Positions 5,767 to 30,333 of a DNA stretch of 39,841 nt are shown one piece after another. The notes beneath the pieces are model-generated. The model ran no database searches, was not told the DNA's origin, and was given only the letters and a program-made list of their open reading frames with translations. The stretch lies in assembly GCA_031254155.1 (NCBI GenBank), contig JAIRVA010000011.1:1-39841 (forward strand), given 5' to 3'. The DNA comes from Propionibacteriaceae bacterium (lineage in GTDB: Bacteria; Actinomycetota; Actinomycetes; Propionibacteriales; Propionibacteriaceae). Position 1 is the stretch's first letter; each line of letters begins with the position of its first letter. The position numbers were made by a program, and so were the translations under genes.

Positions 5767-5789
5767 TTCAAATCCTGTCACCCCGACCA
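5767..5789 (+). other. tRNA 3'-end-like fragment (T-loop, 3' T-stem, 3' acceptor strand, ACCA); possible att scar
   Basis: TTCAAATCC TGT CACCCCG A CCA has canonical tRNA spacing: T54-T55-C56-A57-A58..C61, a 7-nt acceptor strand, a discriminator and CCA. The 5 nt before it match a T-stem partner at only 3/5 positions. No 5' acceptor strand (CGGGGTG), D arm or anticodon arm lies upstream, so it is not an intact tRNA. Confidence 0.35.
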
Positions 5790-6190
5790 GAGGTTCAGCG
5801 TTTGAACTCTGTGACATGCACGCGCCAAACCGAGTTTCTGGAACTGTCGTTTCGTCGCATCTATTGTAGTGGAAGCGGTTGTTGTCTCGTTTTGGGGCGT
5901 TGATGTCGCATGAAGCAGTTTTTGTTCTCAGCGCGTCGTCTGGCGTGTTTTTGACTTTGTTTGGTGTGCCTGGGTCGTTTTCGCGAGTGATGCTGCGCTG
6001 GGGTGTCATGCGCCTTGTCAAAGAGTTTGCAGGGTGTCGCGATGGCAGGCACCAAGCTCGGCGAGTTCGTGGTTTTGGGCGGAGACGCGCCCGGTCGCTG
6101 TCGTACAGGCGTTGGTAGAGGTGACCCAACGGGGTGCAGTCTGCCTGCTCGTTCACGTATCAGGGTCGGGCCTTGGCCGGGTTGACACCG

Positions 6191-14097: not shown

Positions 14098-14122
14098 CCC
14101 ATTTGCAGAAAGGAAACACACC

Positions 14123-15397
14123 ATGTCACGCATGACCCAACTTGCCCGTGTCGGCCTCGTCGCCGTCCTCGGGCTGAGCCTCACCGCCTGTTCGGGGGGT
14201 GGGGAGCCGGGCGGCGGCGCCTCCTCCGGCGCTTCGGCGACGAGTACGCCGGTGACCATCACGTACTCGAACTTCATCTCCAACGGTGGCAACGAGGCGA
14301 ACCTCGCCGCGATCGTGTCCGCGTTCGAGACCGCGAATCCCGGCATCAAAGTCGAGGTGAAGACGCTGCCTTACGCGGACTACTTCACCGCGCTCCAGAC
14401 CGATGTCGCGGGCGGGACCACCGCTGACGTGTTCGACATCGAGTACGCCAACTACGCCGCGTACCAGGCCAACGGTGTCCTCGCCGCGCTGGAAGGCGTT
14501 GACACGGCGGTCTACCAGAAGAACCTGGCCGACGCCTACGCCACCGGTGGTACTCAATACGCGCTCCCCAGCTCCTTCTCGAACGTCGTCCTGTTCTACA
14601 ACAAGACCCTGTTCGACGCCGCCGGCGTCGGTTACCCGACCGCCTCGTGGACGTGGGCCGACGAGCAGGCCGCAGCGGAGAAGCTGACCGACACCGCCAA
14701 GGGCGTGTGGGGCGACTACCAGCCGATCAGCTACAACGAGTACTACAAGGTGGTCGCGCAGACGGGTGGGCAGTTCCTGTCCGCTGACGGCAAGTCGGCC
14801 GCGTTCAACAGCCCCGAGGGCATCAAGGCCGCGAAGTGGCTGGTCGACAAGTCCGGCCAGACCATGCCGACGGCCGCGCAGGGCGCGGGCACCGCTGACT
14901 TCGACTCCAACCTGTTCAAGGACGGCAAACTGGCGATGTGGCACACCGGTATCTGGATGTTCGGCGCCTACGCCAACGCCAGCTTCGACTGGGACATCGC
15001 GGTCGAGCCGGGTGACACCACCCATGCGTCGGCGATGTTCTCCAATGCGCTGGCCGTGTCGGCGAACTCGAAGAACAAGGAGGCCGCGCAGAAGTGGGCG
15101 GTGTTCATGTCGAGCTCGCAGGCCATGGTGGACACCCGCCTGAAAGCCGGCTGGGAGCTTCCGCCCATCGCCGACAAAGCGGCGCTGTCCTCGTACCTCA
15201 CCGCCGGGAAACCCGCCAACCGGCAGGCCGTGCTCGACTCGTTGGATGCCGTGGCTCTGGCCCCGTCTCTGGGTGAGAACCAAGCCGAGATGCAAGATGC
15301 CGTGAACGGACAACTGACCGAGGCCGCCGCCGGACGCAAGACGGTCGAAGACGCCGTCAAGGCCGCCGCTGACAAAGTTGACGCCCTCCTGAAGTAA
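14123..15397 (+). CDS. extracellular sugar-binding lipoprotein of the ABC transporter
   Basis: Lipobox LSLTACSGG and family-1 solute-binding features (ITYSNFISNGG..., LFYNKTLFDAAGV, MWHTGIWM). AAAGGAAAC RBS. Confidence 0.9.
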   Translation: MSRMTQLARVGLVAVLGLSLTACSGGGEPGGGASSGASATSTPVTITYSNFISNGGNEANLAAIVSAFETANPGIKVEVKTLPYADYFTALQTDVAGGTTADVFDIEYANYAAYQANGVLAALEGVDTAVYQKNLADAYATGGTQYALPSSFSNVVLFYNKTLFDAAGVGYPTASWTWADEQAAAEKLTDTAKGVWGDYQPISYNEYYKVVAQTGGQFLSADGKSAAFNSPEGIKAAKWLVDKSGQTMPTAAQGAGTADFDSNLFKDGKLAMWHTGIWMFGAYANASFDWDIAVEPGDTTHASAMFSNALAVSANSKNKEAAQKWAVFMSSSQAMVDTRLKAGWELPPIADKAALSSYLTAGKPANRQAVLDSLDAVALAPSLGENQAEMQDAVNGQLTEAAAGRKTVEDAVKAAADKVDALLK

Positions 15398-15495
15398 GAC
15401 CAGATTAGACGGTGGGGGCGACTCTCCAAGGTCGTCCCCACCACCGATACAGTCAAGGGAAGCGCCAACACCACACCGGAAGGGAACCTGGCCAC

Positions 15496-16617
15496 ATGAC
15501 CACCGCCCACCCGACGGACCTGACCGGTCTGCTCGCCCACTCCCGTACTCTGATCACCGGGTTGCAGACCGCCAGCGGCGCCTATCCGGCCAGTCCGACC
15601 TTCTCCGCCTACCGGGGCTACTGCTGGTTCCGTGATGGTTCGTTCATCGCGGACGGGGTCTCAGTGGCGGGCGACGCGGATTCGGCGACCCGGTTCTTCG
15701 ACTGGTGCGCCCGCGTGATCGCCGACAACCGGCGCCAGATCGACAAGGTCGTCACCGCCGCCGCCCACGGTTCGCCGCTGCCGGACGCCGACATGCTGCC
15801 CGCCCGGTTCACAGTCGACGGACAGCCCGGGGACGACGAGTGGTGGGACTTCCAGCTCGACGGCTATGGTACGTGGCTGTGGGCCGTCGTCGAACACGCC
15901 CGTCGGCACCGGATCGGCGTCAGCCGGTGGGCCGACGCTATCAGCGCCACCGTCGACTACCTAGTCTCATCGTGGCGGCGGCCTTGCTTCGACTGGTGGG
16001 AAGAGCACAGCGAGGCCGTCCACATCTCAACCCTCGGTTGTATCAAGGCCGGGCTCGACGCAGCCCTGGGCACGGGGCTGCTCGACGCGGCGCAAGCTGA
16101 TCGCGCCCACCGGGCCAGCCGGGACATTGCCGGCCTCATCACGACGGGGGGAGTCGCCGACGGCCATCTGACCAAGTGGATTGGCTCCCCGCAACTGGAC
16201 GGCAGCCTGTCCGCGCTGCTCGCCCCGCTGGGCGTCATCAACCCCGCCTCCGCCCTGGGGCGGGGGACCATCGCCGCTATCGACGCTCAACTCGTCGCCG
16301 ACGGCGGCGTGTACCGCTTCCGCGCCGACACCTTCTTCGGTGGCGGCCGCTGGCCGCTTCTGACCTGCTTCCTCGGCCTGGCGAAACTCGCGGCCGGCGA
16401 CCCCGACGGGGCGCGGGCCTGCCTCGACTGGGCCGCGTCCACCGCCACCTCAGGCGGTGACCTCCCCGAACAAGTCGATGGCGGGCGGCTGCTCGACCCG
16501 GCCGCCAAGCAACAATGGATCGACCGCTGGGGCACCGTGGCCACGCCGCTGCTGTGGAGCCACGCCATGCTGCTGCGCCTCGCCGCGGACCTCGGTGTGA
16601 CGGGGGTCGCCGCATGA
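15496..16617 (+). CDS. glycoside hydrolase family 15 protein (glucoamylase/trehalase-like catalytic domain)
   Basis: YRGYCWFRDGSFIADG, WWDFQLDGYGTWLWAV and LPEQVD are typical GH15 (alpha/alpha)6 motifs. ATG 15496 has GGAAGGGA upstream. The ORF-track start 15412 is an unsupported extension. Confidence 0.85.
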   Translation: MTTAHPTDLTGLLAHSRTLITGLQTASGAYPASPTFSAYRGYCWFRDGSFIADGVSVAGDADSATRFFDWCARVIADNRRQIDKVVTAAAHGSPLPDADMLPARFTVDGQPGDDEWWDFQLDGYGTWLWAVVEHARRHRIGVSRWADAISATVDYLVSSWRRPCFDWWEEHSEAVHISTLGCIKAGLDAALGTGLLDAAQADRAHRASRDIAGLITTGGVADGHLTKWIGSPQLDGSLSALLAPLGVINPASALGRGTIAAIDAQLVADGGVYRFRADTFFGGGRWPLLTCFLGLAKLAAGDPDGARACLDWAASTATSGGDLPEQVDGGRLLDPAAKQQWIDRWGTVATPLLWSHAMLLRLAADLGVTGVAA

Positions 16618-18890
16618 TCCGGCACCGGCCCCTTGGCTCCGGCCACCCGTACTCACCCGACACCGAACAGCGCTGGCCGGTCGTCCCCGTCGTCGGCGAG
16701 CCGTTGCGCCTGGGAGTACGGACATCGGGGGACGTCCAGGTCGTCACAGTTGAACTAGTGGTCATGAGCAGTAATTCGCCCACGGTGATGGGGGCCAGCG
16801 CGGCGCTGGGCGGCGCGAAGACCCTCGACCTCACCCCGGTTCCCCGGTCCTCACGCGGCCAGACCACCGACGGCGGCCACCTGGCCTCCGCGCAGGCCCG
16901 CCAAGCCCGTCAAGCCGGCGGCTGGCAAGTCGACCTCCCCGCCGCCCCGGCGGGCGATCTCCGCTACCGGTTCACCGCCCGCCTGGGCGACGGCACCACG
17001 GAAACCACCCGCTGGTACACCGTCCGGGGGGCCGCCTGGCGGCCCGCCGCCGACACCGCAGTGGGCGTCGGTACGGACATCCGGCGACCGGTTCCGGGCA
17101 GCGTCGAGGTGCTGGACGACGGCGAGCGTATTCACCGGGTCCGCCTCGCCCTACCGCTGGCGTCCGGTGAACACGTCACCGGCTTCGGGGAACGCTACGA
17201 CACCGTCGATCAGCGCGGCCTCACCCTGGACAACCAGGTCTTCGAGCAGTACAAGAGCCAGGGCGCGCACCGCCGTACCTACCTGCCCATGCCGTTCGCA
17301 CACGTCGTCGGCGGTGACGGGTGGGGCTTCCACGTCCCAACCACCCGCCGCGTCTGGTTCGACGTTGGCCACACCACGGCTGACCGCTTGGTGATCGAAG
17401 CCGAAACCGACACCTTGTCTGACGCCGAGGTCCAACTCAGCCTGGCGGTCTACTCGGGCAGTCCCGCCGAGGTACTCGACCAGTTCCTGGCCGAGGTCGG
17501 ACGGCCCGCCGAACTGCCCGCCTGGGTGTTCCGCCTCTGGGCCTCCGGCAACGAATGGAACACTCAGGCCGAGATCGGCCGGCAAGCCGCCCTCCACACC
17601 CAGTACGGCATCCCCGTCGGCAACATCGTCATCGAGGCCTGGAGCGACGAAACCACCTTCACCTGCTTCAGGGACGCCCAGTACGACGTTCACGCCGACG
17701 GAAGCCCCCACCGCCTGGGCGACTTCACGTTCCCGCCCGACGGGGCCTGGCCCGACCCGAAGGGGATGGTCGATTCCCTGCATGACCAGGACATTCGCGT
17801 TCATCTGTGGCAAATCCCCCTGCTCAAGACCCGTCCCCACCCCACCGGCCAGGCCAAGGCCGACGTCCACGCCGCCATCCGCGACAACGTCCTGGTCCGC
17901 GAGACCGCGACGGACGGGACGCTGCGCCCGTACCGAAACCGGGGCTGGTGGTTCCCGCTCGGTCTCATGCCCGACCTCACCGACCGGCGCGCCGCCGACT
18001 GGTGGACCGCCAGACGGCGCTACCTGGTCGAGGAGGTCGGCATCGACGGGTTCAAGACCGACGGTGGCGAACACGCCTGGGGCCGCGATCTGGTGTATCT
18101 CGACGGCGCCCACGGCGACGCGAGAAACAACGCCTACCCGGTGGCGTACGCCGCCGCCTACGGACGCCTCCTGGAGTCGTGCGGCAAGGCGCCGGTCACC
18201 TTCTCCCGGTCCGGGTACGCCGGTTCGCAGGCCCACGGGGCGTTCTGGGCCGGCGACGAGAATTCCACCTGGGAGGCATTCCGCTGGTCCATGATCGCCG
18301 GACTGGGCGCCGCCAGTTGTGGCATCGTCTACTGGGGCTGGGACATCGCCGGATTCTCCGGCCCCGTCCCCGACGCCGAACTGTACGTCCGGGCGATGGC
18401 CGCCAGTGCCTTCCTGCCCATCATGCAGTACCACTCCGAGTACAACCACCACCGCTCGCCGTCCCGCGACCGTACCCCGTGGAACATCGCGGAGCAAACC
18501 GGCGAAGCCAGTGTGATCGAGGAAGTCCGCCAGATCGTGGCTGTGCGCGAACGCCTCGTCGGCTATCTGGCCGAGCAGGCCCGCCGCACTCTCGCCACCA
18601 GCCGTCCGCTGTTGCGCCCACTGTTTTTCGACCACCCGGACGATCCTGCGATCTGGGAACACCCGGTCCAGTGGACACTCGGCGACCATATCCTCGTCGC
18701 ACCCGTCCTCGCCCCCGGGCAGACCGCCTGGCCGGTGTACCTGCCGGCCGGACACTGGATTGACGCCTGGACCGGCGAGCCCCACGAAGGCCGACGAGTC
18801 ATCACCGCCCACGTACCCCGCCATCACGCGCCCGCCTACGTTGACGCCGGCCAATGGCCGACGCTGCAGGCCGTCTTCCGAGGCGAGTAG
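16614..18890 (+). CDS. glycoside hydrolase family 31 (YicI-like alpha-glucosidase/alpha-xylosidase)
   Basis: GFGERYDTVDQRG, IDGFKTDGGE (nucleophile region, YicI-type KTD.GE) and FWAGDENSTWEAF. ATGA overlap with the GH15 stop. Confidence 0.9.
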   Translation: MIRHRPLGSGHPYSPDTEQRWPVVPVVGEPLRLGVRTSGDVQVVTVELVVMSSNSPTVMGASAALGGAKTLDLTPVPRSSRGQTTDGGHLASAQARQARQAGGWQVDLPAAPAGDLRYRFTARLGDGTTETTRWYTVRGAAWRPAADTAVGVGTDIRRPVPGSVEVLDDGERIHRVRLALPLASGEHVTGFGERYDTVDQRGLTLDNQVFEQYKSQGAHRRTYLPMPFAHVVGGDGWGFHVPTTRRVWFDVGHTTADRLVIEAETDTLSDAEVQLSLAVYSGSPAEVLDQFLAEVGRPAELPAWVFRLWASGNEWNTQAEIGRQAALHTQYGIPVGNIVIEAWSDETTFTCFRDAQYDVHADGSPHRLGDFTFPPDGAWPDPKGMVDSLHDQDIRVHLWQIPLLKTRPHPTGQAKADVHAAIRDNVLVRETATDGTLRPYRNRGWWFPLGLMPDLTDRRAADWWTARRRYLVEEVGIDGFKTDGGEHAWGRDLVYLDGAHGDARNNAYPVAYAAAYGRLLESCGKAPVTFSRSGYAGSQAHGAFWAGDENSTWEAFRWSMIAGLGAASCGIVYWGWDIAGFSGPVPDAELYVRAMAASAFLPIMQYHSEYNHHRSPSRDRTPWNIAEQTGEASVIEEVRQIVAVRERLVGYLAEQARRTLATSRPLLRPLFFDHPDDPAIWEHPVQWTLGDHILVAPVLAPGQTAWPVYLPAGHWIDAWTGEPHEGRRVITAHVPRHHAPAYVDAGQWPTLQAVFRGE

Positions 18891-18963: not shown

Positions 18964-19635
18964 CTACGGCAGCGGCGGTCCAGGCTTCGGGGGTGGGCCA
19001 AGTATCTTGCCTGGCGAGGTGACCGCGAGTCGCCCAAAGACATAGTTCCTGCCTGCTCCGATACCGACGCCGATGGCGAAAGGAACCTGCTTGCCGCAGA
19101 CGAGGAGTCCTTGCTTGGTACCGTACTTGGTGACGAAGTAACGTCCCAGGGTTTTGTTGGCGGCCTTAATCGCCTCCGTTGGGATCGCTTACACTATCTT
19201 TCTTCCCCAGTAAGGGGCGGTGCGCCCGATCAACGGCTTCAGTACGGTCTTCGCAGTACTATCACCAACGAGTGCCACAGTGACCAACAGCCGTCGGCTC
19301 TCGTAGTCTTCGGCATCGGTACCGTGGACTTCGGCGGCGGACAGGGTGTACAAGACTGAGGTTTCCAGGAACGTGAGAAGGTCGGCCAAGGCGACGGGAA
19401 CCTGAACGAGCCCGTTGGGGATGATTGCCGCCGCACCAGCACCAACTCCTGTGACGGTGACCGTGCCCAGGTACCATTTCCCCACATAGGCGAGGAGCTC
19501 TCCGGGAGGTTTGTCGGGGTGCACCCGCCGCAAGCGTGCGACGTACTCCGTCCCCAACGGGTATGGGGTCTCCAGAGCCTTGTTTGGGCCCGCAGCTAAG
19601 GCGGCCTCGGGATCAAGTTTTCTGATATCCGACAC
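18964..19635 (-). pseudogene. EcsC-like membrane-associated protein interrupted by an in-frame TAA
   Basis: The ORF-track entry 19189..19635 stops at TAA 19189-19191. The same frame then continues directly as AIPTEAIKAANKTLGRYFVTKYGTKQGLLVCGKQVPFAIGVGIGAGRNYVFGRLAVTSPGKILGPPPKPGPPLP* to TAG 18964-18966. The Gly-rich GKQVPFAIGVGIGAGRNY end resembles EcsC-family C-termini. Total length is 672 nt, in frame. Confidence 0.5.
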
Positions 19636-19782
19636 TGACTCGTTGTGGCACTCTTTCGTTTCGAGCGACGGGTGGACCTTGGGGACGGAACTGAAAGGGG
19701 GCCGGTTGTGGTCGTATCAGCCACGCGGAAGCGCCTCTTTGGCGCTAAACTGAGATTACACTCTTCGACATGACGATGGAGG

Positions 19783-20889
19783 ATGATGCGAGACGAGGGT
19801 GGACTCTCCGTGATACCAGAGGTTTCGGCGTCGCCAAGTGTTCCTCCGATTGTCATCGATTTCTTTAGTGGGTGTGGGGGAACGAGTGCCGGGCTACGGA
19901 GAGCGGGCTTACGCATCGTGGCCGCTGTCGACTTCGACCCAGCCGCATCGGCAACCTATCGGGCGAACTTTCCAGAAGCCGAGTTCCACGAGATTGATGT
20001 ACGTAAACTCCCTCTCAATTCCTTTGACCACTTGATGGAAGCCGATACGCCGATTGTTTTCTCCGCGTGTGCGCCTTGCCAGCCGTATAGTTCTATGCGC
20101 CCTCGTGACTCGCGTCAGCGGCCTCGTGAGAGATCGTTGCTCCTGTCGCTCCTCCCATTTGTCGATCGCTTGTGGCCAGACTCGATTGTCGTGGAAAACG
20201 TTCCGGGGTTACAGAAGGTTTCCGGAGCTTCTACATGGAATCGTTTTCTGCGGCATCTTGAACGCGGGGGGTACTCCATTCGATGGGATGTTGTTGATTG
20301 CCGTAACTACGGCGTGCCGCAGCGGCGGCGGAGGTTGGTCCTTCTAGCTTCTCGCCACGGAGGAGTCGACCTACCCGCTGCTACGCATGGGGTGGGTGGG
20401 CGGCCCTACTCCACTGTGCGAGACTGGATCGGGCATCTGCCGCCGCTAGATGCCGGTGAGACCTGTGCTGAGGACCCTATTCACCGAGCGGGCAGGTTGG
20501 GAGAGCAGAACCTCCGGCGTATCATGGCGACCCCTGAAGGGGGAAGTAGATCGGATTGGCCCGCAGAACTCTGGCTGGAGTGCCATAAGCGCGCCAAAGG
20601 GCATCAAGACTCTTACGGTCGAATGCGGTTTGACGAGTCTGCCCCGGTGCTGACCACCAAATGTACTGACATCACAAACGGGAGATATGGGCATCCGAGT
20701 CAGAACCGAGGCCTGAGCGTCAGGGAGGCGGCTCTGCTCCAGACTTTTCCACAAGATTTCACATTCATCGGAGGGCTCCGATCAATGACCAAACAGATTG
20801 GTAACGCGGTTCCTGTTCTCGTAGCGGAGGCGATGGGGCGGCAGGTTGCTCAGCATCTTCAAACAGAGCGGGCAGCGCGCAATGGCTGA
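19783..20889 (+). CDS. DNA (cytosine-5)-methyltransferase
   Basis: All C5-MTase motifs are present: I VIDFFSGCGG, IV SACAPCQPYS, VI ENVPGL, VIII QRRRRLVLLAS, IX REAALLQTFPQDF and X QIGNAVP. The exact start is uncertain (ATG 19783/19786 or GTG ~19810). Confidence 0.9.
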   Translation: MMRDEGGLSVIPEVSASPSVPPIVIDFFSGCGGTSAGLRRAGLRIVAAVDFDPAASATYRANFPEAEFHEIDVRKLPLNSFDHLMEADTPIVFSACAPCQPYSSMRPRDSRQRPRERSLLLSLLPFVDRLWPDSIVVENVPGLQKVSGASTWNRFLRHLERGGYSIRWDVVDCRNYGVPQRRRRLVLLASRHGGVDLPAATHGVGGRPYSTVRDWIGHLPPLDAGETCAEDPIHRAGRLGEQNLRRIMATPEGGSRSDWPAELWLECHKRAKGHQDSYGRMRFDESAPVLTTKCTDITNGRYGHPSQNRGLSVREAALLQTFPQDFTFIGGLRSMTKQIGNAVPVLVAEAMGRQVAQHLQTERAARNG

Positions 20890-23818
20890 GTTTCGCGCGA
20901 GTGCGCGGACAGTGGACATGCTGGGTAGGCAGCAGATCGCGGGCGTTCCCACCGCAATCAGCGAGTTGTACAAGAATGCACACGACGCGTATGCGACGGT
21001 CGCGGAAGCTGACTTCGTTCGTTACAAAGGCGTCTTCGTCCTCCGAGACAATGGAGACGGCATGTCGCGTACGGACTTCGAGGGGAGATGGTTGACGCTG
21101 GGCACCTCATCCAAGTCCGCTACAAGCTCTCTTCGTGTCGATACTGCGCGCCCGCGTAGAGCGATTCTTGGTGAAAAAGGAATCGGACGGCTTGCGATCG
21201 CTGCTATTGGTCCACAGACTTTGGTGGTGACTAAGGCTCGAGGGCACAAGCGCGTCGCCGCGCTTGTTCACTGGGGCGTGTTCGAGTTAGCGCATGCAAG
21301 CCTTTCGGAGATCAAGGTGCCAGTGGTTGAGCTCGAACCCAGCCAGGGACCGGATGTGCGGGAGATGAGTCACCAGATACTTGCCAACGTTCGTCATCTC
21401 GTGACTGACGACGATCCCGGACTGTATGACAGGATTCACCAGGACTTGCGCCGATGGTCCGAAGTTGGTCTGGACGAAGTCACGGCTGCGGCAGGAGTCG
21501 ACCTTGCGGCGTTCGAGCCGGGTACGGCTTTCGTGATTGTTCCGACGTCACCTGACTTGGAAGCCGATCTGGAGGCCCCACCAAAGGAGGCCGCACCATT
21601 GCTGAGAACTCTCATCGGGTTTGCCAACACGATGACTCCAGGTCATTCTGTACCCGAACTAAAGACAGTTTTTCGGTACCACCGTGCTCCCGACGATGTT
21701 CGAGATCTCATCGAAGACCAAGAGTTCTTCACTGTAGACGAATTTCGGAAGGCTGATCATCACTTCGAGGGGGAGTTTGACGAGTATGGTCAGTTCCGAG
21801 GGACCGTGTCGGTGTTTGATGGTCCCCCACAGTCTTACCCCCTCCCTTGGAGTCCGGCGCGTGGTGTGCGAACCCGCTGCGGCCCGTTTCGCCTTCACCT
21901 GGCCTACGTTCAGGGAGTTGCCAAGTCCTCGCGCCTTGAGGCGAACGACTTCGTCGCGATCGGGGAGAAGCTCGATTGCTATGGCGGCTTGTACATCTAC
22001 AGGAATGGTGTTCGAGTACTTCCCTATGGGGATAGTAGTTTCGACTGGCTTGATGTTGAGAAGCAGCGCACTAAATCAGCATCAGATCATTTCTTTTCGT
22101 ATCGCCGGATGTTCGGTGCCGTTGAGATTACGAGAGAGAGGAATAGCCAACTCCGGGAGAAAGCAGGGCGTGAAGGTTTCGCGACGAACGAAGCATACCG
22201 TCAGTTTCGGGAGATCCTGAAGAACTTTCTGACGCAAGTCGCGAACGAGTTTTTCCGTGAGGGCGGACCTCAGGCCGAAGCCTGGGAAGAAGGAAAACTG
22301 GCAAATGAGCGAATGGACAAGGCGAGGCGAGTTCGGAGCAAACAAGTGCGAGCGCGGCGTACCGAGTACAGTGGCGCGCTGGATCGCTTTTTTGAGGAGG
22401 TAAACGCTGGAGTGCCTGAGGCCAAAGTGGAGCGAATCCTGGGAGATCTCCGCCTCGAAGTGGGGCATGCTCAAGTGACCGAAGATCCGTCGACAGCGGT
22501 TGACCTGTTGGTACGCGCAGAACTGAGTGCACGCTCCCAACTCCGAGAACTTGTGTCAAGCCTTCAAGTGCGACGACCCCGCGGAGTTGCGCTTAGTGGG
22601 ATTCTGACTAGACGATCTAGGCTCTATGACGAGACTCGGGTCGACATTCTCGAGTCCGTGTTGCGGCCTGCTGAGCAACAGGTGGATGAAACACTCTCAG
22701 TGGTGGACCTTCAACTAGACCGAGCCGTTCATCGCCGTCTGCGATTTGATCAATCGGTCTTGCAGGCAGTAGATGAGTCGCGAGACATGGTCAGTGGGGC
22801 GAGAGGTGATCTACAGAAGCAGGCTGCGCAAGTCGCTGATCGGATAAAGGAACTAGTTGGCGAGGCTCGAAAAGCGGTTGAGATGGAAGCGGTGGCGGTG
22901 CTACAGCAGGCGGCAACGACTGAGCTTTCGTGTCTTACTGATCCGGAGTTCGCGCGATTGAGGAATGAGTTGGAGACCCGTGTCAGGGCTATGGCGGGTT
23001 CTCAGCTTGATGCGTTGCGTGCGGTCGAGGAGCAGTTGCGTTCAGTGGTCTGGGCGGCGGAAGATGAGAACGGGGGTACGGCCTCCTTGCTGGACCAGGT
23101 GGAGCAACTCGAAGAACGCGTTGAAGTACTTACCGATCGTGCATCCCAGGATTTTGAGCTTGTTCAGATCGGGCTAGCGGTTAATATCGTGACTCACGAG
23201 TTCGAGAACAGCATCCGATCCGTTCGTGAGAACCTGCGACGTCTCAAAGTCTGGGCGCAAGAGAACGCGAGCTTGCGACCCCTTTACAGCGATCTCCGAA
23301 CATCCTTTGAACATCTCGATGGGTACCTGCGGCTCTTCACACCGCTTCACCGGCGTCTGTACCGTGAACCGGTGGAGATCGCTGGAACCGACGTGGTGAG
23401 ATACCTGAGCGACGTGTTCGAGCGGCGACTGATTGAGGAAGGAGTGGAACTGAACGCGACAGCGGCGTTTCAGAGCATGCGTGTACGAATGTTCCCGTCC
23501 ACATTATACGCAGTGTTGGTGAACCTAGTTGACAATGCGGTGTACTGGGTTGCGCAGTACTCTGGAACCCGAGAGATAACTCTCGACAAGTCGGAGGGAT
23601 TGATCTCCGTGACTGACTCAGGTCGCGGCGTTAGTCTCGGTGATGAGGAAGTGGTGTTTGAGCAGGGGTTCTCCCGGAAACCGGCCGGATCGGGGTATGG
23701 GCTTTTTGTGGCCCGTGAGGTGTTGCGTCGTGACGGAGCCGACGTTCGGCTCGCACCGCCAAGTGCGGATCGCGGCGCTCGTTTCGAGATACTTCTTCCT
23801 GACGGAGGCGAGAAGTAA
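20882..23818 (+). CDS. fusion protein: N-terminal MutL/MORC/Hsp90-type GHKL ATPase, long helical region, C-terminal histidine-kinase transmitter (DHp + CA)
   Basis: ATG 20882 overlaps the MTase stop (ATGGCTGA). N-terminal Bergerat motifs: ISE28LYKN32AHD35A, LRD56NGDGM, LGTSSKS, GEKGIGRLA and GLYIYRNGVRVLPYGDSSFDWLDVEKQR. C-terminal kinase motifs: H-box VTHEFENSIRSV (His772, nt 23195-23197), N-box NLVDNAVYW, G1 VTDSGRGV and G2 GSGYGLFVAREV. Confidence 0.85.
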   Translation: MAEFRASARTVDMLGRQQIAGVPTAISELYKNAHDAYATVAEADFVRYKGVFVLRDNGDGMSRTDFEGRWLTLGTSSKSATSSLRVDTARPRRAILGEKGIGRLAIAAIGPQTLVVTKARGHKRVAALVHWGVFELAHASLSEIKVPVVELEPSQGPDVREMSHQILANVRHLVTDDDPGLYDRIHQDLRRWSEVGLDEVTAAAGVDLAAFEPGTAFVIVPTSPDLEADLEAPPKEAAPLLRTLIGFANTMTPGHSVPELKTVFRYHRAPDDVRDLIEDQEFFTVDEFRKADHHFEGEFDEYGQFRGTVSVFDGPPQSYPLPWSPARGVRTRCGPFRLHLAYVQGVAKSSRLEANDFVAIGEKLDCYGGLYIYRNGVRVLPYGDSSFDWLDVEKQRTKSASDHFFSYRRMFGAVEITRERNSQLREKAGREGFATNEAYRQFREILKNFLTQVANEFFREGGPQAEAWEEGKLANERMDKARRVRSKQVRARRTEYSGALDRFFEEVNAGVPEAKVERILGDLRLEVGHAQVTEDPSTAVDLLVRAELSARSQLRELVSSLQVRRPRGVALSGILTRRSRLYDETRVDILESVLRPAEQQVDETLSVVDLQLDRAVHRRLRFDQSVLQAVDESRDMVSGARGDLQKQAAQVADRIKELVGEARKAVEMEAVAVLQQAATTELSCLTDPEFARLRNELETRVRAMAGSQLDALRAVEEQLRSVVWAAEDENGGTASLLDQVEQLEERVEVLTDRASQDFELVQIGLAVNIVTHEFENSIRSVRENLRRLKVWAQENASLRPLYSDLRTSFEHLDGYLRLFTPLHRRLYREPVEIAGTDVVRYLSDVFERRLIEEGVELNATAAFQSMRVRMFPSTLYAVLVNLVDNAVYWVAQYSGTREITLDKSEGLISVTDSGRGVSLGDEEVVFEQGFSRKPAGSGYGLFVAREVLRRDGADVRLAPPSADRGARFEILLPDGGEK

Positions 23819-23819
23819 C

Positions 23820-25469
23820 ATGAGTGACAGCTTCGAGAGTCACATTCGAGAACAAGTGAAGTGTTTTTTGCAGACCGTGTTGGTGATCGACGACGAGGCA
23901 TATCGGCCGCTTGACTCATCAGCGCTGGACGTGGATGATGGCGAAGACTGGGGTGTTGGTGGCCGGGAGTCGCTGCCAGGAAAGCTGCCGCAACTGAAGG
24001 TTCCGCTGGAAGAACATGCAAGTGAAGCGTTCGATGCTAAGTCGGTGTCAGTCGCCTTCGCAAAGGTCGGGCTGTCTTGCGCAATCTTGTCGCCACAGTC
24101 AACGCAGGAGAACAAGGAACACGAACCTGCGTTCACTTCGGCTGCAAAACGCGCTGACGTACTTGTTTTGGACTGGAGTATGAACGGCGACCATGGACAA
24201 ACTGCCAAAGACCTAGTTGGCTCTGTGTTACGCGATGATGCGAGTAACGAGCATCATCGTCTTCGACTTATCGTCGTCTACACGGGTGAACCGTTTCTCG
24301 GGGACATTGCAGTGCAGATAGCCTTGGTAGTCAAGTCGATTCTTGGCGACGAGCCTGACTGGGACGATAGAGAAACAATGGTCTCATTCTGTTGTGGGCC
24401 TGTGCGAGTATCGGTATACGCGAAAGAGCATGTGAGTAACCTCCCCATCGGCCTCGAGGAGCGTAGACGCAGTCTTTCCGCGTTACCTCAGGTGACTGTG
24501 GAAGAGTTCGGCCGCCATCGTATTGGGCTCGTCACTACGGCAGCGATATCCGCTCTAGCGGCGATCCGAAATGATGCCCATAGACTGCTCGCTGTTTTTG
24601 GTCCAGAACTGGACCCTGCGGTTCTTGGTCAACGCGTCGCCTTGCCCCATCCAGAAGATGTGGAACGGCAAGTTGAGGAACTTATCGGATCCGAGTTACT
24701 GGCTATTGTGCAAGACCATGAAGTGGGTGCTCACATCGGAGTACCAGAGATTGAGGCTTGGCTTGCGCATGACAAGAGTTTGGGTTCGCATGGGTGCAGC
24801 GAGTTCGAGGGCGTTACGGATGCGATCCGCCTCCAACTTCTCAAGGACGGGCTTACGGAGAAACTGAAGGGCGAAGCGGGGATAAGTGGGAACAAAAGTA
24901 ACCGCTTTAGGAAAAGAGGTGCTGCTCTGTTTGCTTCTAGCGAAGAGAAGTCCGACAGCTCGCGCGATCTCCTGGGTGTACTCATGTCCATGCGTAGTCG
25001 CTATACTAGGCCAATTCCACGGCTTCAGCTTGGCTCGGTCGTTGAACAAGGGGGTGTCTACGCGGTTTGCGTGCAACCTTTGTGCGATTGTGTGCGGATC
25101 GTCGGAGAACGTGCATTCCCGCTACTACCCGCAGAAGTCGTGGAGGAAGACAACGGTGGCGCCGGGGGATATCTTGCCACGGTTTATGATCCCGCCGCTG
25201 ACCGGACTTCCTGTCGGAATGGGTATGTACGGCTGCGAGTGAGAGCTGATCCCTGGCGGATTCAAATGGTTGCGTTCGCCGCGTCAACTACGGGAGAAGT
25301 CGAGTCGATCATAGAGGATGGTGCGATTACTTTTCGGTCGAAGACTGGTGAAGTGTGGCGATGGATTGGGGAGTTGAACCCGGAACACGCTCAGCGAGTA
25401 GTGGTGAGTCTTGCAGCAAGTCTTGCTCGGGTTGGTGTCACTGAAGTTGAGGCTCTACGCGTCGGTTGA
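23820..25469 (+). CDS. divergent response-regulator receiver-domain protein with an uncharacterised ~330-aa C-terminal region
   Basis: ATG 23820 lies 1 nt after the upstream TAA, with GGAGG 11-15 nt upstream. Receiver signature residues sit in canonical order: TVLVID24D25E, ADVLVLD118WSM (nt 24171-24173), RLIVVYTGEP and VSVYAKE. A ~45-aa acidic insert follows beta-1. I recognise no motif in the C-terminal half. Confidence 0.75.
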   Translation: MSDSFESHIREQVKCFLQTVLVIDDEAYRPLDSSALDVDDGEDWGVGGRESLPGKLPQLKVPLEEHASEAFDAKSVSVAFAKVGLSCAILSPQSTQENKEHEPAFTSAAKRADVLVLDWSMNGDHGQTAKDLVGSVLRDDASNEHHRLRLIVVYTGEPFLGDIAVQIALVVKSILGDEPDWDDRETMVSFCCGPVRVSVYAKEHVSNLPIGLEERRRSLSALPQVTVEEFGRHRIGLVTTAAISALAAIRNDAHRLLAVFGPELDPAVLGQRVALPHPEDVERQVEELIGSELLAIVQDHEVGAHIGVPEIEAWLAHDKSLGSHGCSEFEGVTDAIRLQLLKDGLTEKLKGEAGISGNKSNRFRKRGAALFASSEEKSDSSRDLLGVLMSMRSRYTRPIPRLQLGSVVEQGGVYAVCVQPLCDCVRIVGERAFPLLPAEVVEEDNGGAGGYLATVYDPAADRTSCRNGYVRLRVRADPWRIQMVAFAASTTGEVESIIEDGAITFRSKTGEVWRWIGELNPEHAQRVVVSLAASLARVGVTEVEALRVG

Positions 25470-25792
25470 CTGGGGTGAGAGAAACCCGTCGGTTGGTCGG
25501 GGTGCCATATGGACCCTGGTATACGGCGATGCCTCCTCTTTGGTCCCTTGCGTAAACCCTGTCCCCAGCCGCTGGCGTCTACAACAACGATGCCGGTCGC
25601 CACGGTTTCCAGGTTGGGTCGTCTCCCGCTCGCCCCGTTCGCGCAACGTGTCAGCCCGCGGCCGGGCACGAGCCCGCAGGCAGTCGAGCAGGCGACGACG
25701 AACGCCGAGGTCTGTAGAAAGCGAGGCTACAGATTGGTATATGGATTGAACTATTGCGTGTATGCTGGTACCGCTATCGGAAAGGAACTGTC

Positions 25793-26437
25793 ATGTCTCC
25801 CAGCGCCGCCCCTGTCCCGCCGAAGAAACCCCTAGTCAGTATCATCGTTGGTATCTGCGTGCTGGTACTCGGCCCGATTGTTGGGACTATCATTATTGTT
25901 TATTCGACAATGAGTTCGTTTAGTGGGGTCCTTGATGCGCCGACTCACACGGCGGATGGTTCGCCTAGCGCGGTCACGTTGACGGCGGGTGCGGAGATGG
26001 GGATTTGGACGGAGCAGGGGAATTTTGGGCAGTGTTCGGTGACGGATCCGACCGGCCAGGCTGTCGCTCTCAACGCCAACTCGGCGGTGAGTGTGAATAC
26101 GGGGAACTTCTCTCTGGGTGGGATTTTCACCCCGACGGTGGACGGGTCGTACGAGGTGCAGTGTACCTCCAGCGGCACGCCGTTTGAGTTCCGGGTGGCG
26201 CCGTCTGTCCAGGTCGCTAAGTTTGCGGGTGGGCTCGTGATTGGGATCGGTCTCATCATTGTGACCGGCTTGGCCGGTCTGGCTATTCTGATCGTGGGGA
26301 TTGTCCGCCGGGTGAGCTGGAATAGCCAGTACGGCCGGCGGGGCGTACCTGGCTATCCACCCGTCGGCGGCTACCCGCCTGCTGGTAGTTACCCACCCGC
26401 GGGGCCGGCGGGTCCGGTACCTGGTCGGGCCAACTAG
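25793..26437 (+). CDS. two-TM membrane protein with Pro/Gly/Tyr-rich C-terminal tail
   Basis: GGAAAGGAA RBS. TM helices IIVGICVLVLGPIVGTIIIVY and GGLVIGIGLIIVTGLAGLAILIVGIV flank a beta-rich extracytoplasmic segment. The tail reads GYPPVGGYPPAGSYPPAGPAGP. Confidence 0.6.
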   Translation: MSPSAAPVPPKKPLVSIIVGICVLVLGPIVGTIIIVYSTMSSFSGVLDAPTHTADGSPSAVTLTAGAEMGIWTEQGNFGQCSVTDPTGQAVALNANSAVSVNTGNFSLGGIFTPTVDGSYEVQCTSSGTPFEFRVAPSVQVAKFAGGLVIGIGLIIVTGLAGLAILIVGIVRRVSWNSQYGRRGVPGYPPVGGYPPAGSYPPAGPAGPVPGRAN

Positions 26438-26866: not shown

Positions 26867-26933
26867 TTGTGCGGGGTCCGGTACGGCGTTGAGGGGCCGG
26901 TGCTCCTGGGTGGACGGGCCGGACCCCGCACAA
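26867..26933. repeat. 13-bp perfect inverted repeat (TTGTGCGGGGTCC / GGACCCCGCACAA) with a 41-nt spacer, between the sORF and kdpD
   Basis: Read directly from the sequence: arms at 26867-26879 and 26921-26933. Function unknown (attenuator, terminator or deletion-junction structure). Confidence 0.5.
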
Positions 26934-27119
26934 GCGCTCTCACCCTCGCTTCGCTCGCCCGCCCGGCGCCCGGCTGACGACGCAGCGTGGATCAGCGCTT
27001 CCCCGGGCGAGTTCCTGGCCCGTTGTACCTTGCCGTACTGGCCCCGAAACCACGGTGAGAGCGTTAGGCTATACCCGGTGGTTGCACGCGTGTGCCCACC
27101 GCTGGCAAGAAGGGAAGAC

Positions 27120-29663
27120 ATGGATCGCGGCCGGTTGCGGGTCCTGCTCGGTGCGGCTCCGGGCGTCGGGAAAACGTACGCCATGCTGGACGAGGGCCGG
27201 GGTCTCAAAGCGTCGGGCAAGGACGTCGTCGTGGCGGTCGTCGAAACCCACGGCCGCCCGGCCACAGCCGCCCAGACGCGGGGCCTGGAGATCCTGCCGC
27301 GGAAGATCGTGGTCCACCGCGGGATCGAGCTGACCGACATGGATACCGACGCGGTCATCGCCCGGCGCCCGGACATTGCCCTGGTCGACGAGCTGGCCCA
27401 CACCAATGCCCCCGGAATGCGCCATGACAAGCGCTGGGAGGATGTGGAAGACCTGCTCGCCGCCGGGATTGATGTCATCACGACCGTCAACATCCAGCAC
27501 ATCGAGTCGATGAACGACGTGGTCGAGGAGATCACCGGTGTCGCCCAGCACGAGACCATCCCCGACGGCATCCTGCGCGCCGCCGATCAGGTGGAGGTGG
27601 TCGACCTGGCACCGCAAGCCCTGCGCGACCGGTTGTCGGCCGGGTACGTCTATCCGGCCGAACGTGTCGACGCCGCCCTCTCCAACTATTTCCGGGTCGG
27701 CAACCTGACGGCCCTGCGCGAGCTGGCGCTGTTGTGGGTCGCGGACGAGGTGGACACGGCCCTCAAGAAGTACCGTACCGAACACGGCATCGCCCAGCAG
27801 TGGGAGGCCCGCGAGCGGGTCGTGGTGGCGCTCGGCGGCGCGAGCGAGGGCGAGATGCTGCTGCGCCGCGGGGCCCGGATCGCGTCGCGGTCGGTTGGCG
27901 GCGAGCTGATGGCGGTCCACGTCGTGAGCCAGGACGGGCTCAGTACGCCGCACCCGGGTGTTCTCGCCGCCCAACGGGCGCTGATCGAGCACCTGGGGGG
28001 CACCTACCACCAGGTCGTCGGCGACGACATCCCCGGCGCCCTCGTCGAGTTCGCGAAGGCCGCCGAGGCCACCCAGCTCGTCGTCGGCTGTTCGCACCGC
28101 CACTGGGCGCTTGGTCCCCTGGTCGGGCGGGATATCGGGATGGCGGTCATCCGGGATTCGGGGACAATCGACGTTCACATCGTCAACACGTCCGTGACGG
28201 CGGTCCGGCTGGCCCTGCCGCGGCTGGGGGGTGCGATGTCGCTGCGTCGAATCCTCGCCGGTTTCCTGGTCACGCTCGCGGGCGGCCCCCTGCTGACGTG
28301 GCTGCTCCGTGTGACCCACCCCGAGGGGACAATCGCGCCGCACGTTCTCGCGTTCCAGGTCCTGGTCGTGGTCGCGGCCGTGATCGGCGGGCTGTGGCCC
28401 GCGCTGGCCGCGGCCGTGATGTCGGGCCTGCTCCTGAACTACTTCTTCGTCGCCGCGACCGGTACCTTCACGATCCAGGAGCCCAGCAACCTGATCACGC
28501 TCGCGCTGTACGTCCTGGTGGCGGTCTTGGTCAGTTTCGTTGTCGGCGAAGCCTCCCGTCGGTCGCGCCAGACTCGTCGTACCGCCGCCGAGTCCGAGCT
28601 CCTCGCCGCCGTCGCGGGCAGCGTCATGCGCGGCCAGGATGCGGTTCAAGCCATCCTGGAACGGATCAGTGAGGCGTTCAGGCTTGATGGCGTACGTTTG
28701 CGGGCGGGCGACACCGTTCTAGGTACGGTGGGCGAAGTGGGTGGCAAACCGCCCACGGGGACGTTCCCGGTGGGGGAGCGGGCGGTGCTCGAGGTCCGGG
28801 GACCGGATCTGACGACGTCGGAGCGCCGTCTCATGGCCGTACTCGTGTCCCAGCTTGACGCCGCGCTCGAGGTCGGCGACCTCGCGAAGACGGCGAGCGA
28901 GGTGGAGCCGCTTGCCGCGTCGGAGCGGGTCCGGACGGCCCTGCTGGCCGCGCTGAGCCACGACCTGCGCCGGCCCATCGCCTCCGCGACGGCCGCCGTG
29001 AGCGGGCTGAAGGCCATGGGGGCCGACATGACGCAGGACGACCGGGAAGAGTTGCTGTCCACCGCCACCGAGAGTCTCGACGCGCTCGCGGAGCTTGTCA
29101 ACGACCTGTTGGACGTCAGCAAGCTCCAGGCCGGGGCGCTCGTGATCGCCACGACGCCGGTCGATGTGGACGACGCGATCGCGCCGGCGCTGGACGAGTT
29201 GCGGCTCGACGCGCACGATGTCGAGCTCGACCTCGGCGACGTACCCCCGGCGATGGCCGATCCCGTGTTGCTCCAGCGGGTCATCGTGAACCTGCTGCTC
29301 AACGCGTTGCGGTACGCGCCGAAGCACACCAAGGTCCGGCTGGCGACGAGCGCGTTCGGCGGCAACGTCGAGGTGCGGATCACGGATCACGGGCCCGGTG
29401 TGCCGCCCGAGCGGGTCGGGGCGATCTTCGTACCCTTCCAGCGTGAGGGCGACACGGACAATACCAAGGGCTTAGGGCTGGGACTCGCCCTGTCGAAGGG
29501 CTTTGTCGAGGCGATGGGGGGTACGCTGACCCCCGAGGACACCCCGGGCGGCGGGCTGACGATGGTGGTGTCCCTCGCCGCGGCCGTCTTGGCGGCCGGC
29601 TCGCCCGGCACCCCCGATTCCGACTCCGACGACGGGAGAACCGATGAAGATACTGATCGTTGA
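27120..29663 (+). CDS. kdpD: sensor histidine kinase KdpD
   Basis: N-terminal KdpD domain LRVLLGAAPGVGKTYAML...ALVDELAHTN...DVITTVNIQHIES, then a USP-like domain, four TM helices, H-box LSHDLRRPI, N-box NLLLNALRYA, and G boxes DHGPGV / GLGLGLA. Confidence 0.9.
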   Translation: MDRGRLRVLLGAAPGVGKTYAMLDEGRGLKASGKDVVVAVVETHGRPATAAQTRGLEILPRKIVVHRGIELTDMDTDAVIARRPDIALVDELAHTNAPGMRHDKRWEDVEDLLAAGIDVITTVNIQHIESMNDVVEEITGVAQHETIPDGILRAADQVEVVDLAPQALRDRLSAGYVYPAERVDAALSNYFRVGNLTALRELALLWVADEVDTALKKYRTEHGIAQQWEARERVVVALGGASEGEMLLRRGARIASRSVGGELMAVHVVSQDGLSTPHPGVLAAQRALIEHLGGTYHQVVGDDIPGALVEFAKAAEATQLVVGCSHRHWALGPLVGRDIGMAVIRDSGTIDVHIVNTSVTAVRLALPRLGGAMSLRRILAGFLVTLAGGPLLTWLLRVTHPEGTIAPHVLAFQVLVVVAAVIGGLWPALAAAVMSGLLLNYFFVAATGTFTIQEPSNLITLALYVLVAVLVSFVVGEASRRSRQTRRTAAESELLAAVAGSVMRGQDAVQAILERISEAFRLDGVRLRAGDTVLGTVGEVGGKPPTGTFPVGERAVLEVRGPDLTTSERRLMAVLVSQLDAALEVGDLAKTASEVEPLAASERVRTALLAALSHDLRRPIASATAAVSGLKAMGADMTQDDREELLSTATESLDALAELVNDLLDVSKLQAGALVIATTPVDVDDAIAPALDELRLDAHDVELDLGDVPPAMADPVLLQRVIVNLLLNALRYAPKHTKVRLATSAFGGNVEVRITDHGPGVPPERVGAIFVPFQREGDTDNTKGLGLGLALSKGFVEAMGGTLTPEDTPGGGLTMVVSLAAAVLAAGSPGTPDSDSDDGRTDEDTDR

Positions 29664-30333
29664 CGACGACCCCCAGATTGTGCGCGCGTTGCGGATCACG
29701 CTGCGCGTCAAGGGGTACGAGGTCGTGATCGCCGCTGACGGCGCCCACGCGATCGCGCTGGCGGTGGACGAGCGGCCGGACGTGTACCTGATCGACCTCG
29801 GCCTGCCCGGCATGGGCGGGCTGGAGGTGATCAAGGCGGTACGCGGGTGGTCGATGGCACCGGTCCTCGTCGTCTCGGGCCGCGCGGGCTCGACGGACAA
29901 GGTCGAGGCGCTCGACCTCGGGGCCGACGACTACGTCACCAAACCCTTCTCCATCGACGAATTGCTCGCCCGCATCCGGGCTCTGACCAGGCGCATCCCC
30001 GCTGGCGAGGAGGAGGAACCGCTGCTGAAGCTCGGGCCGGTGACGATCGACTTCTCGGCGCGGACGGCGATGAAGAAAACCGGGCGGCGGAGCGAACCCA
30101 TCCGGCTCACCCCGACCGAGTGGCAGGTTCTGGGGCTGCTGGCCCGCAACCCGGGTCGGCTCGTCACCCGGCAGACCATGCTCACGGAGATCTGGGGCTC
30201 GGTCCACGTGGCCGACACGGGGTACCTGCGGCTGTACATGTCCCAACTCCGCAAGAAGCTCGAGCCCAACCCGGGCAAGCCAAGATACTTGATCACCGAG
30301 TCCGGGATGGGGTACCGTCTCCAGGTGGGGTGA
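29644..30333 (+). CDS. kdpE: OmpR-family response regulator KdpE
   Basis: MKILIVDDDPQIV..., DVYLIDLGLPGMGG, VLVVSGR, DDYVTKPF and a winged-helix C-terminus (LTPTEWQVL...GMGYRL). 20-nt overlap with kdpD. Confidence 0.9.
   Translation: MKILIVDDDPQIVRALRITLRVKGYEVVIAADGAHAIALAVDERPDVYLIDLGLPGMGGLEVIKAVRGWSMAPVLVVSGRAGSTDKVEALDLGADDYVTKPFSIDELLARIRALTRRIPAGEEEEPLLKLGPVTIDFSARTAMKKTGRRSEPIRLTPTEWQVLGLLARNPGRLVTRQTMLTEIWGSVHVADTGYLRLYMSQLRKKLEPNPGKPRYLITESGMGYRLQVG

Follow-up and report, generated by a model that had tools for sequence, protein, structure and literature searches.

A 39,841-nt stretch of DNA from a Propionibacteriaceae bacterium, referred to as a whole as the window, carries a cassette at positions 19783–25469 of its forward strand. 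The list of open reading frames (ORFs) gives three same-strand, translationally coupled genes, encoding a C5 cytosine DNA methyltransferase (MTase), a 978-residue kinase (gene 2) and a 549-residue receiver protein (gene 3). The protein sequences identify the cassette as an intact and typical member of the family described by the Pfam models HEF_HK (PF19191) and Response_reg_2 (PF19192). It is compositionally foreign and was horizontally acquired. We hold, with moderate confidence, that it constitutes a self-contained restriction-like conflict system, for defence and/or post-segregational addiction.

The two Pfam families were defined on precisely such a kinase/receiver pair, starting from a Pectobacterium locus (Bellieny-Rabelo, Pretorius and Moleleki 2021, Genome Biol Evol, PMC8011034). 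That study reported a kinase-receiver linkage of 91.6% over 644 regions in 628 strains, a dominant HATPase_c_3 + HEF_HK + HATPase_c architecture, an upstream C5 DNA_methylase gene and a frequent Vsr gene; its authors also sought partner nucleases in 10-gene neighbourhoods (PMC8011034). An origin in the paraMORC ATPases that Iyer, Abhiman and Aravind had described was proposed (PMC8011034; PMC2292703). In the cassette, PF19191 scores 95.9 bits against a cut-off of 24.1, and PF19192 129.3 bits against a cut-off of 27. The signature domains, the kinase/receiver adjacency, the upstream C5-MTase, the group 1 architecture of the kinase and the solubility of the proteins are all shared with the family, from which no structural difference was found. 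The cassette is actinobacterial, lacks Vsr, and is 52–54% identical to its nearest relatives.

An initial sequence-only reading of this DNA had considered that the cassette could not be assigned to a named system. This has to be withdrawn, as PF19191, PF19192 and PMC8011034 describe this gene pair. The same reading would have given way if annotators had placed all three genes in a described system, and here the outcome is divided: the literature and Pfam describe the cassette, whereas genes 2 and 3 are without a PADLOC model. [quoted passage not shown]

19783–20889, +, MTase, C5 cytosine DNA methyltransferase of 368 residues
20882–20889, +, overlap between the stop codon of the MTase and the start codon of gene 2, ATGGCTGA, by direct reading of the sequence
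20882–23818, +, gene 2 (kinase), 978 residues, from the ATG at 20882
20951–21265, +, N-terminal Bergerat ATP-binding core of gene 2, residues 24–128 (HATPase_c_3, 1.7e-14)
21287–22306, +, middle module of gene 2, residues 136–475, with K427 in EKAGREG
22307–23161, +, variable linker of gene 2, residues 476–760, between ATPase head and kinase
23165–23365, +, HEF_HK DHp domain, residues 762–828 (PF19191, 2e-27)
23195–23197, +, codon of the predicted phospho-acceptor His772, in the H-E-F motif
23498–23803, +, kinase catalytic ATP-binding (CA) domain, residues 873–974 (HATPase_c, 3.6e-16)
23804–23822, +, gene 2/gene 3 junction, by direct reading: GGAGG ribosome-binding site 23804–23808, TAA 23816–23818, ATG 23820–23822
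23820–25469, +, gene 3 (receiver protein), 549 residues, from the ATG at 23820
23865–24437, +, receiver (REC) domain of gene 3, residues 16–206 (Response_reg_2 PF19192, 2.3e-37)
24171–24173, +, codon of the predicted phospho-acceptor D118, in the REC domain
24438–25001, +, predicted all-helical output domain, residues 207–394, from AlphaFold2 (AF2) secondary structure, with no Pfam match
25002–25466, +, predicted C-terminal β-sandwich and long helix, residues 395–549; modelled alone, predicted local distance difference test (pLDDT) 89.2

The start of the MTase is ambiguous, with an ATG possible at 19774, 19783 or 19786. At its other end, the ATG of gene 2 overlaps the TGA of the MTase, an arrangement that indicates translational coupling of the two genes. 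An 8-nt overlap of the same style is present in the Nocardioides and Pseudoclavibacter homologues. The packing of three co-directional genes, with the ATG/TGA overlap and the GGAGG before a 1-nt junction, was read in the sequence as first described. The G+C content (GC) of the cassette is 0.566, against 0.68–0.69 in the flanks, and at third codon positions (GC3) it is 0.53–0.59 in the cassette genes against 0.85–0.91 in the flanking GH31, KdpD and KdpE genes. These values bear out the earlier proposal that the cassette, being lower in G+C than both flanks, was acquired horizontally. No att repeat, tRNA, promoter or terminator was found above chance around the island. No Vsr, nuclease or helicase gene is present in or beside the cassette, in agreement with the sequence-only reading.

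The three proteins

Residue conservation was counted on 66 complete cassettes. In 62–66 of these, the MTase keeps its catalytic residues, as do the two ATPase sites of the kinase, H772 and the REC set D24/D25/D118/T155/K202; N32, H772 and D118 are invariant or absent by one gap only. Conservation of this extent points to purifying selection. A hydropathy scan found no hydrophobic segment in any of the three proteins.

The MTase matches Pfam DNA_methylase over profile positions 3–322 of 324 (6.8e-56), as well as TIGR00675 dcm (1.4e-42) and PADLOC MTase_II (3.6e-84). Its relatives in the PDB are DNMT1 and M.HaeIII. The FxGxG, PCQ, ENV, QRR and GNAVP motifs are kept across the 66 cassettes, in agreement with the initial claim that all C5 motifs are present.

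Gene 2 has the group 1 architecture according to Pfam (HATPase_c_3 + HEF_HK + HATPase_c), and is predicted to encode a soluble protein in which a GHKL ATPase of the paraMORC-like kind is joined to a histidine-kinase transmitter. No transmembrane segment was detected, the maximum Kyte-Doolittle hydropathy over 19 residues being 1.43 in a simple scan, which is not a dedicated predictor. The motifs of the N-terminal Bergerat core (E28, N32, D56xGxG60 and G97EKGIGR) are present in 65 of the 66 cassettes, and the sole exception is an alignment gap. A profile of residues 1–475 retrieved only Hsp90 and MutL from the PDB. Residues 8–130 match the head of the BbrUII/HgiDII restriction enzymes in NCBIfam (1.6e-16), and PADLOC gave for gene 2 just a weak GHKL match to REase_II.

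Residues 136–475 gave no profile or structural match in Pfam or the PDB. K427 and R430 are invariant in all 66 cassettes, and EKAGREG is a motif that typifies the transducer domains of GHKL proteins. This segment is presumed to form the remainder of the GHKL fold and an S5-like transducer, as it would by analogy with paraMORCs (PMC2292703). The linker that follows (residues 476–760) is the most divergent part of gene 2, with a p-distance of 0.71–0.75. It gave only weak Pfam matches of the coiled-coil type and is probably a coiled-coil. No nuclease-like match was found in Pfam or the PDB over residues 136–760.

In the transmitter, H772 and E773 are invariant (66/66 cassettes) and F774 is present in 62 of 66. 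The N-box residues N881/N885 and the glycines G936xG938xG940 are kept in 65–66 of 66. In a PDB search, residues 748–973 align with ZraS and other kinases. The two complete ATP-binding modules originally recognised, the second of them within a transmitter with an H-box histidine, are consequently supported by the conservation of both sites and of H772. As a side observation, residues 371–970 match PHROG 8137, a phage/prophage family with no assigned function (2e-96), and prophages therefore carry kinase-like homologues.

In gene 3, the receiver residues D24, D25, D118, T155 and K202 are conserved at 94–100% (179 representatives; 66 cassettes). The DD/D/T/K set pointed out by the sequence-only reading is retained, and a His-to-Asp relay appears intact. 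C87 (66/66 cassettes) and D113 of the REC domain are invariant too. The full-length protein was modelled with AlphaFold2 from a 27-sequence alignment. The model is confident (pLDDT 85.6), with residues 32–68 disordered, and consists of the REC domain, an all-helical domain and a β-sandwich capped by a 28-residue C-terminal helix. Foldseek matches of the full model were weak and concerned the response regulator 6xvu and flavodoxin-like folds.

No recognised Pfam domain is present in residues 207–549. R250, D265, R272 and E292 are conserved in the helical part, and the β domain contains the motif C417-x-Q419-P420-x-C422-D423-x-x-R426 (nt 25068–25097), which is kept in 66 of 66 cassettes. The C-terminal domain has no fold match in the PDB by Foldseek (best E 0.25, template modelling (TM) score < 0.3). 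Matches to PH, PilZ and diphtheria-toxin folds lie at this noise level (E ≥ 0.25, TM < 0.3) and were left uninterpreted. A structure search of BFVD and a sequence/profile search of the PDB with the output half gave no match either. This half of the receiver protein was called unrecognisable at the outset, and the Pfam and PDB fold searches leave that description unchanged.

A hidden nuclease was sought in the three proteins and their sub-regions with Pfam, NCBIfam, PADLOC, PHROGs, PDB and Foldseek; none was found, the only matches being to REC/flavodoxin and GHKL/kinase folds.

A profile search of 1.84 billion representative proteins gave 1,327 receiver clusters (50% identity) at E ≤ 1e-30. 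Among the 150 best matches listed, nearly all cover the full ~540–600 residues of the receiver protein, and the output half is therefore a fixed part of it rather than a variable add-on. Longer family members differ merely by linker insertions. The ten short matches to the C-terminal domain are gene fragments on very short contigs; the two on longer contigs that were looked up correspond to the C-terminal end of a receiver gene, split or truncated, beside the kinase. On these matches, the idea of a C-terminal domain that occurs free-standing or with different partners was rejected.

Conservation of the triad and exchange of its parts

The six homologue neighbourhoods that were looked up (24–52% identity) all contain the MTase, the kinase and the receiver. 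They are a Nocardioides integrative and conjugative element (ICE), Pseudoclavibacter, Rhodococcus, a proteobacterial element with a type IV secretion system, a Tn7-like element and a prophage-like contig. A wider census scanned one genome per species and yielded 175 relatives, of which the best 80 loci were analysed with hidden Markov models (HMMs) built from our own alignments. These 80 loci belong to Actinomycetota, Acidobacteriota, Chloroflexota, Pseudomonadota, Bacteroidota, Planctomycetota and Verrucomicrobiota, and to three archaea.

The kinase gene lies directly upstream of the receiver gene in 79–80 of the 80 loci. Of the 73 loci with sufficient flank, 70 have a C5-MTase gene at a distance of up to 5.5 kb, and the exact order MTase-kinase-receiver on one strand is found in 55 of 80. 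The gene-neighbourhood check proposed by the sequence-only reading thus shows the triad to co-occur. In 51 of 80 loci, Vsr is encoded at most 5.5 kb away, and its gene often follows immediately downstream of that for the receiver. In the all-against-all clustering, the antisense shadow ORFs to which the three genes give rise were filtered out before counting. No further gene family then occurred in more than four of the 80 loci, and there is therefore no conserved nuclease or helicase partner. The conserved unit is the triad, with Vsr added in about two thirds of the loci.

The three exceptions without MTase stand beside genes for PLD-nuclease/helicase-like proteins or ThiF-JAB proteins, which are conflict-system contexts themselves. 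In two Dehalococcoidia loci (L033 and L053), a Vsr-like remnant, a PLDc_2 protein and an MrfA Zn-binding-domain protein are encoded upstream. In the third (L041), the kinase-receiver pair adjoins genes for ThiF and a prokaryotic JAB protein.

The archaeal loci (L018, L025 and L032) come from Methanosarcinaceae, Methanosarcina and a Promethearchaeum metagenome-assembled genome (MAG). Each has a receiver gene with the kinase directly upstream, and the presence of archaeal copies indicates inter-domain transfer. A C5-MTase was detected in L018 and L032, not in L025, where the contig is short and the kinase is split into two ORFs. A DNA-level search of plasmids for the cassette gave no match, and a protein-level search gave two distant plasmid copies. 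Among 50,697 phage records, a tblastn search with the receiver protein found no copy.

The three genes do not evolve at the same pace. Pairwise distances correlate between kinase and receiver (Spearman 0.67) more than between MTase and kinase (0.33) or MTase and receiver (0.19). Loci L081 and L086 have kinases that are 93–94% identical and receivers 80–97% identical along their length (80–94% in the output part), with MTases that are 55% identical, and 46–47% in the target-recognition region. Conversely, L078 and L050 share an MTase at 99% identity, with kinases at 83% and receiver residues 431–520 at only 27%. These comparisons indicate that kinase/receiver pairs which are almost identical exchange their MTases. 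Co-variation with the target-recognition region of the MTase was seen in no part of the kinase or receiver, partial correlations being ~0 or negative, and a matched independent DNA reader in either protein was therefore rejected.

Segment identities within the receiver were computed as medians over 15 pairs with kinases 75–90% identical. Two output segments are hypervariable, residues 300–394 (0.43) and 431–520 (0.37), and diverge about twice as fast as the rest of the protein, the less variable parts being the REC domain (0.67), residues 207–299 (0.72) and the C-terminal helix (0.79). Between L063 and L086, the identity drops with sharp borders (~299 and ~520) inside a protein that is otherwise 85–97% identical. 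Such borders suggest cassette replacement by recombination, and residues ~299–520 of the output domain may be exchanged as recombinational cassettes. The two hypervariable segments are in keeping with antagonistic selection on an interface. Mosaic receiver genes were seen in L063, L081, L086, L078 and L050, with the identity of residues ~299–520 down to 12–40%, and the mosaicism among these loci is independent of MTase similarity. The pattern of swapping and hypervariability is absent from the 2021 family paper (PMC8011034).

Surroundings in the window

Outside the cassette, the following features were annotated.

3304–4011, −, ArdA antirestriction gene (Pfam, 4.4e-24)
9352–10395, −, AbiEii (PADLOC 4e-127; Pfam AbiEii)
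10280–10849, −, AbiEi (PADLOC 2e-65; Pfam AbiEi_4)
15412–16617, GH15
16515–18890, GH31, 1,3-alpha-isomaltosidase-like gene
18964–19635, −, interrupted ORF with an in-frame TAA at 19189–19191, bordering the low-GC segment on its left, outside the system
25754–26437, +, predicted membrane protein of 227 residues with a Pro/Gly/Tyr-rich tail and no family match, of intermediate GC (0.62), between the cassette and kdpD
26889–29663, KdpD, right host backbone
29644–30333, KdpE, right host backbone

The interrupted minus-strand ORF corresponds to the inactivated gene that had been noticed beside the cassette; it has no Pfam or PADLOC match. The host backbone to the left (11095–18890) comprises a sugar ABC transporter, GH15 and GH31. 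The nearest relative of GH31 is only 73% identical and comes from a Propionibacteriaceae MAG, which indicates that the source organism is poorly represented. The order of the sugar operon is conserved in that MAG and what follows differs, so that synteny was uninformative on the insertion of the cassette.

A complete AbiE pair (abortive infection/type IV toxin-antitoxin) occupies 9352–10849 on the minus strand, in a lower-GC stretch ~9 kb upstream of the cassette. Further to the left, the stretch 4000–6000 beside ArdA has a GC of 0.55–0.57 and contains two ORFs (4315–4779 and 4683–5441) without family match. As ArdA adjoins this low-GC stretch of family-less ORFs, the sequence suggests that the first 10 kb of the window hold remnants of a conjugative or mobile element.

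Proposed mechanism and competing explanations

Several known systems resemble the cassette in part. Like paraMORC/MORC proteins, gene 2 has an N-terminal Bergerat ATPase of the Hsp90/MutL type, its motifs intact, and then a middle module in which a lysine is conserved; a DNA methylase and Vsr as neighbours and lateral mobility of the genes are further likenesses. However, paraMORC/MORC proteins carry or adjoin a nuclease or helicase (RecB/DUF4263 PD-(D/E)xK, HNH or a superfamily 2 (SF2) helicase), whereas gene 2 ends in a histidine-kinase transmitter, with the output placed in a separate receiver that has no recognisable nuclease. Classical paraMORC membership was rejected, as no operonic or fused nuclease or SF2 helicase is found in the window and none is conserved in the 80 loci. 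The paraMORC3 group corresponds to Shedu type I-D (VcSduA, Nat Microbiol 2025, PMC12137116); this assignment was discarded on the lack of a DUF4263 match and of a PADLOC Shedu match.

With the BbrUII/HgiDII enzymes (NCBIfam NF050001), the cassette shares the pairing with a C5-MTase and the ATPase head, which matches positions 7–127 of the 659-position profile. This match scores 60 bits, where the family cut-off is 550, and the rest of the restriction enzyme is absent. The link to GHKL/MORC ATPases embedded in restriction-modification (R-M) systems, drawn in the sequence-only reading, is upheld by this head match.

Detocs, reportedly described by Rousset et al. in 2023, is said to be a defensive two-component system made of a TPR sensor kinase, a buffer receiver and a PNP effector receiver. 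The cassette would resemble it in its logic, with sensing by a cytoplasmic kinase and execution by a receiver-effector through His-to-Asp phosphotransfer. In contrast to Detocs, its DHp family is HEF_HK and a C5-MTase is integral. Genes 2 and 3 have no TPR or PNP_UDP match in Pfam at E ≤ 1, there is a single receiver gene and no PADLOC match; Detocs was excluded, and the differences from it that had been listed at first, including the missing buffer receiver, hold.

A functional analogy can be drawn with BREX/Pgl and with Type I/III R-M systems, in which the MTase marks self and targets restriction, and ATPases couple recognition to outcome. Pgl uses protein phosphorylation, with PglW as kinase and PglZ as phosphatase, and BREX is not known to have a classical nuclease. 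There is no homology; the cassette contains no PglX-type N6-adenine MTase, PglZ, BrxC, HsdR or Res, and genes 2 and 3 have no PADLOC match to any of these systems. The C5 type of the MTase and the lack of PADLOC BREX matches for genes 2 and 3 exclude BREX/Pgl.

We infer every functional step of the following scheme. The MTase would methylate the host DNA and thereby mark self. It would probably also supply DNA-site recognition, as MTase subunits do in Type I/Type III R-M and BREX, since it is exchangeable without matching changes in the kinase or receiver. The distance correlations and the translational coupling at 20882–20889 speak for this role as well. The overlapping stop and start would allow the 978-residue protein to be made in stoichiometric amounts. 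At unmodified sites, the GHKL-S5 head would close in an ATP-dependent manner on DNA or on a putative MTase-DNA complex; GHKL heads of other systems serve as ATP-dependent sensors or clamps. The signal would run along the long helical linker to the DHp/CA transmitter, leading to phosphorylation of His772, from which the phosphoryl group would pass to Asp118 of the 549-residue protein. Phosphorylation would then release or assemble the output, that is, the helical domain and the β-sandwich with its CxQPxCDxxR motif, as the executing activity, perhaps a nuclease of a new kind, perhaps a block that works without nucleolysis. The nuclease of the GHKL relatives would be replaced here by a phosphorelay that gates an output protein.

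The reading as a conflict module draws on the mobility of the genes (relatives are carried on ICEs, a Tn7-like element and a prophage-like region), the foreign GC3, the BbrUII/HgiDII-like head, the contexts of the MTase-less loci and the fast-diverging output. It also has a precedent in VcSduA, a GHKL-nuclease fusion of the paraMORC3 type that is an experimentally verified anti-phage protein and requires its ATPase (PMC12137116). Several points weigh against this reading. The literature search gave no experimental study of any HEF_HK/Response_reg_2 member, and neither gene 2 nor gene 3 is covered by a model in PADLOC v2.0.0 (2023). Foldseek against the PDB and HMM searches recognise no toxic fold, nuclease or other, in the output half. 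The contact between MTase and kinase is putative, and the S5 and coiled-coil assignments in the middle of gene 2 are themselves inferred. Relaxed constraint, instead of an arms race, could underlie the hypervariability, and MTase swapping is also compatible with a kinase/receiver pair that is indifferent to methylation.

A more specific proposal is put forward tentatively. The cassette may be an immune system that is free of nuclease or uses a new one, in which a MORC-like DNA clamp reads the methylation state that an exchangeable C5-MTase sets, and passes this on, through His-to-Asp phosphotransfer, to an effector whose fold has not been seen before. C417, C422, D423 and R426, perhaps with C87, would form a catalytic or metal-binding centre, and the two hypervariable segments would be the interface of an arms race with phages.

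Other functions were weighed against the conflict system. Ordinary two-component systems usually end in regulation, and the kinase could sense an intracellular cue, such as the nucleoside triphosphate pool or the state of the DNA, for the receiver to tune the MTase or nearby R-M genes. Control of R-M systems was proposed by the family's authors (PMC8011034), and the absence of a nuclease agrees with it. We nevertheless consider regulation unlikely: the output half has no helix-turn-helix, known DNA-binding domain or PDB fold match, and the MTase is the only conserved partner, which leaves nothing else to regulate. The three genes, judging from their arrangement, are co-transcribed and translationally coupled rather than divergently regulated, and the mobility, the hypervariable output and the MTase swapping fit a conflict module better. 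An improbable alternative is a Type II-like R-M system, where the C-terminal half of the receiver would be a divergent site-specific nuclease sharing the MTase site, with the relay as a checkpoint for timing or ATP. In its favour, restriction endonucleases notoriously escape recognition, the cassette and the BbrUII/HgiDII enzymes have the GHKL head in common, and the output contains an invariant Asp/Arg/Cys cluster. Yet no known nuclease domain or fold was found in the cassette (Pfam, NCBIfam, PADLOC, PDB, Foldseek), and the predicted β-sandwich with its helix matches no known nuclease core. Moreover, MTases that diverge by 45–55% are paired with near-identical kinase/receiver proteins in L081/L086 and the converse holds in L078/L050; with swaps in both directions, an independent matched sequence reader in the receiver is unlikely.

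Least probable is a role in the maintenance or repair of 5-methylcytosine, in which the MutL-like head would assist Vsr in repairing T:G mismatches that arise by deamination and the relay would report damage. E. coli MutL stimulates Vsr, and the frequent position of Vsr directly downstream of the receiver, within the 51 loci that have it, speaks for this explanation. Proteins with GHKL and S5 domains are MutL relatives, whose occasional recruitment to repair was raised by Iyer et al. (PMC2292703). Against it, Vsr is missing from the window and from 29 of the 80 loci, and Vsr accompanies C5-MTases generally, ordinary R-M systems included. Repair would also leave unexplained the phosphorelay, the large conserved output protein, the hypervariable segments and the carriage on mobile elements.

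For the window itself, the cassette adds one more canonical member to the family, with a foreign origin that is unusually clear in a high-GC actinobacterium. The remaining interest is in the family: it is large (1,327 clusters), is spread over many bacterial phyla and a few archaea on mobile elements, apparently has no conserved nuclease, and ends in an output without solved structural relative. If the cassette is a defence or addiction system, it would introduce a new signalling logic, with a phosphorelay between sensing and execution, and would offer a tractable bacterial system for methylation-responsive MORC-type ATPases. If the more specific proposal is true, no earlier restriction-like system would have had a two-component phosphorelay as its gate, and bacteria would provide a model of the way in which MORC ATPases link the methylation state of DNA to an output.

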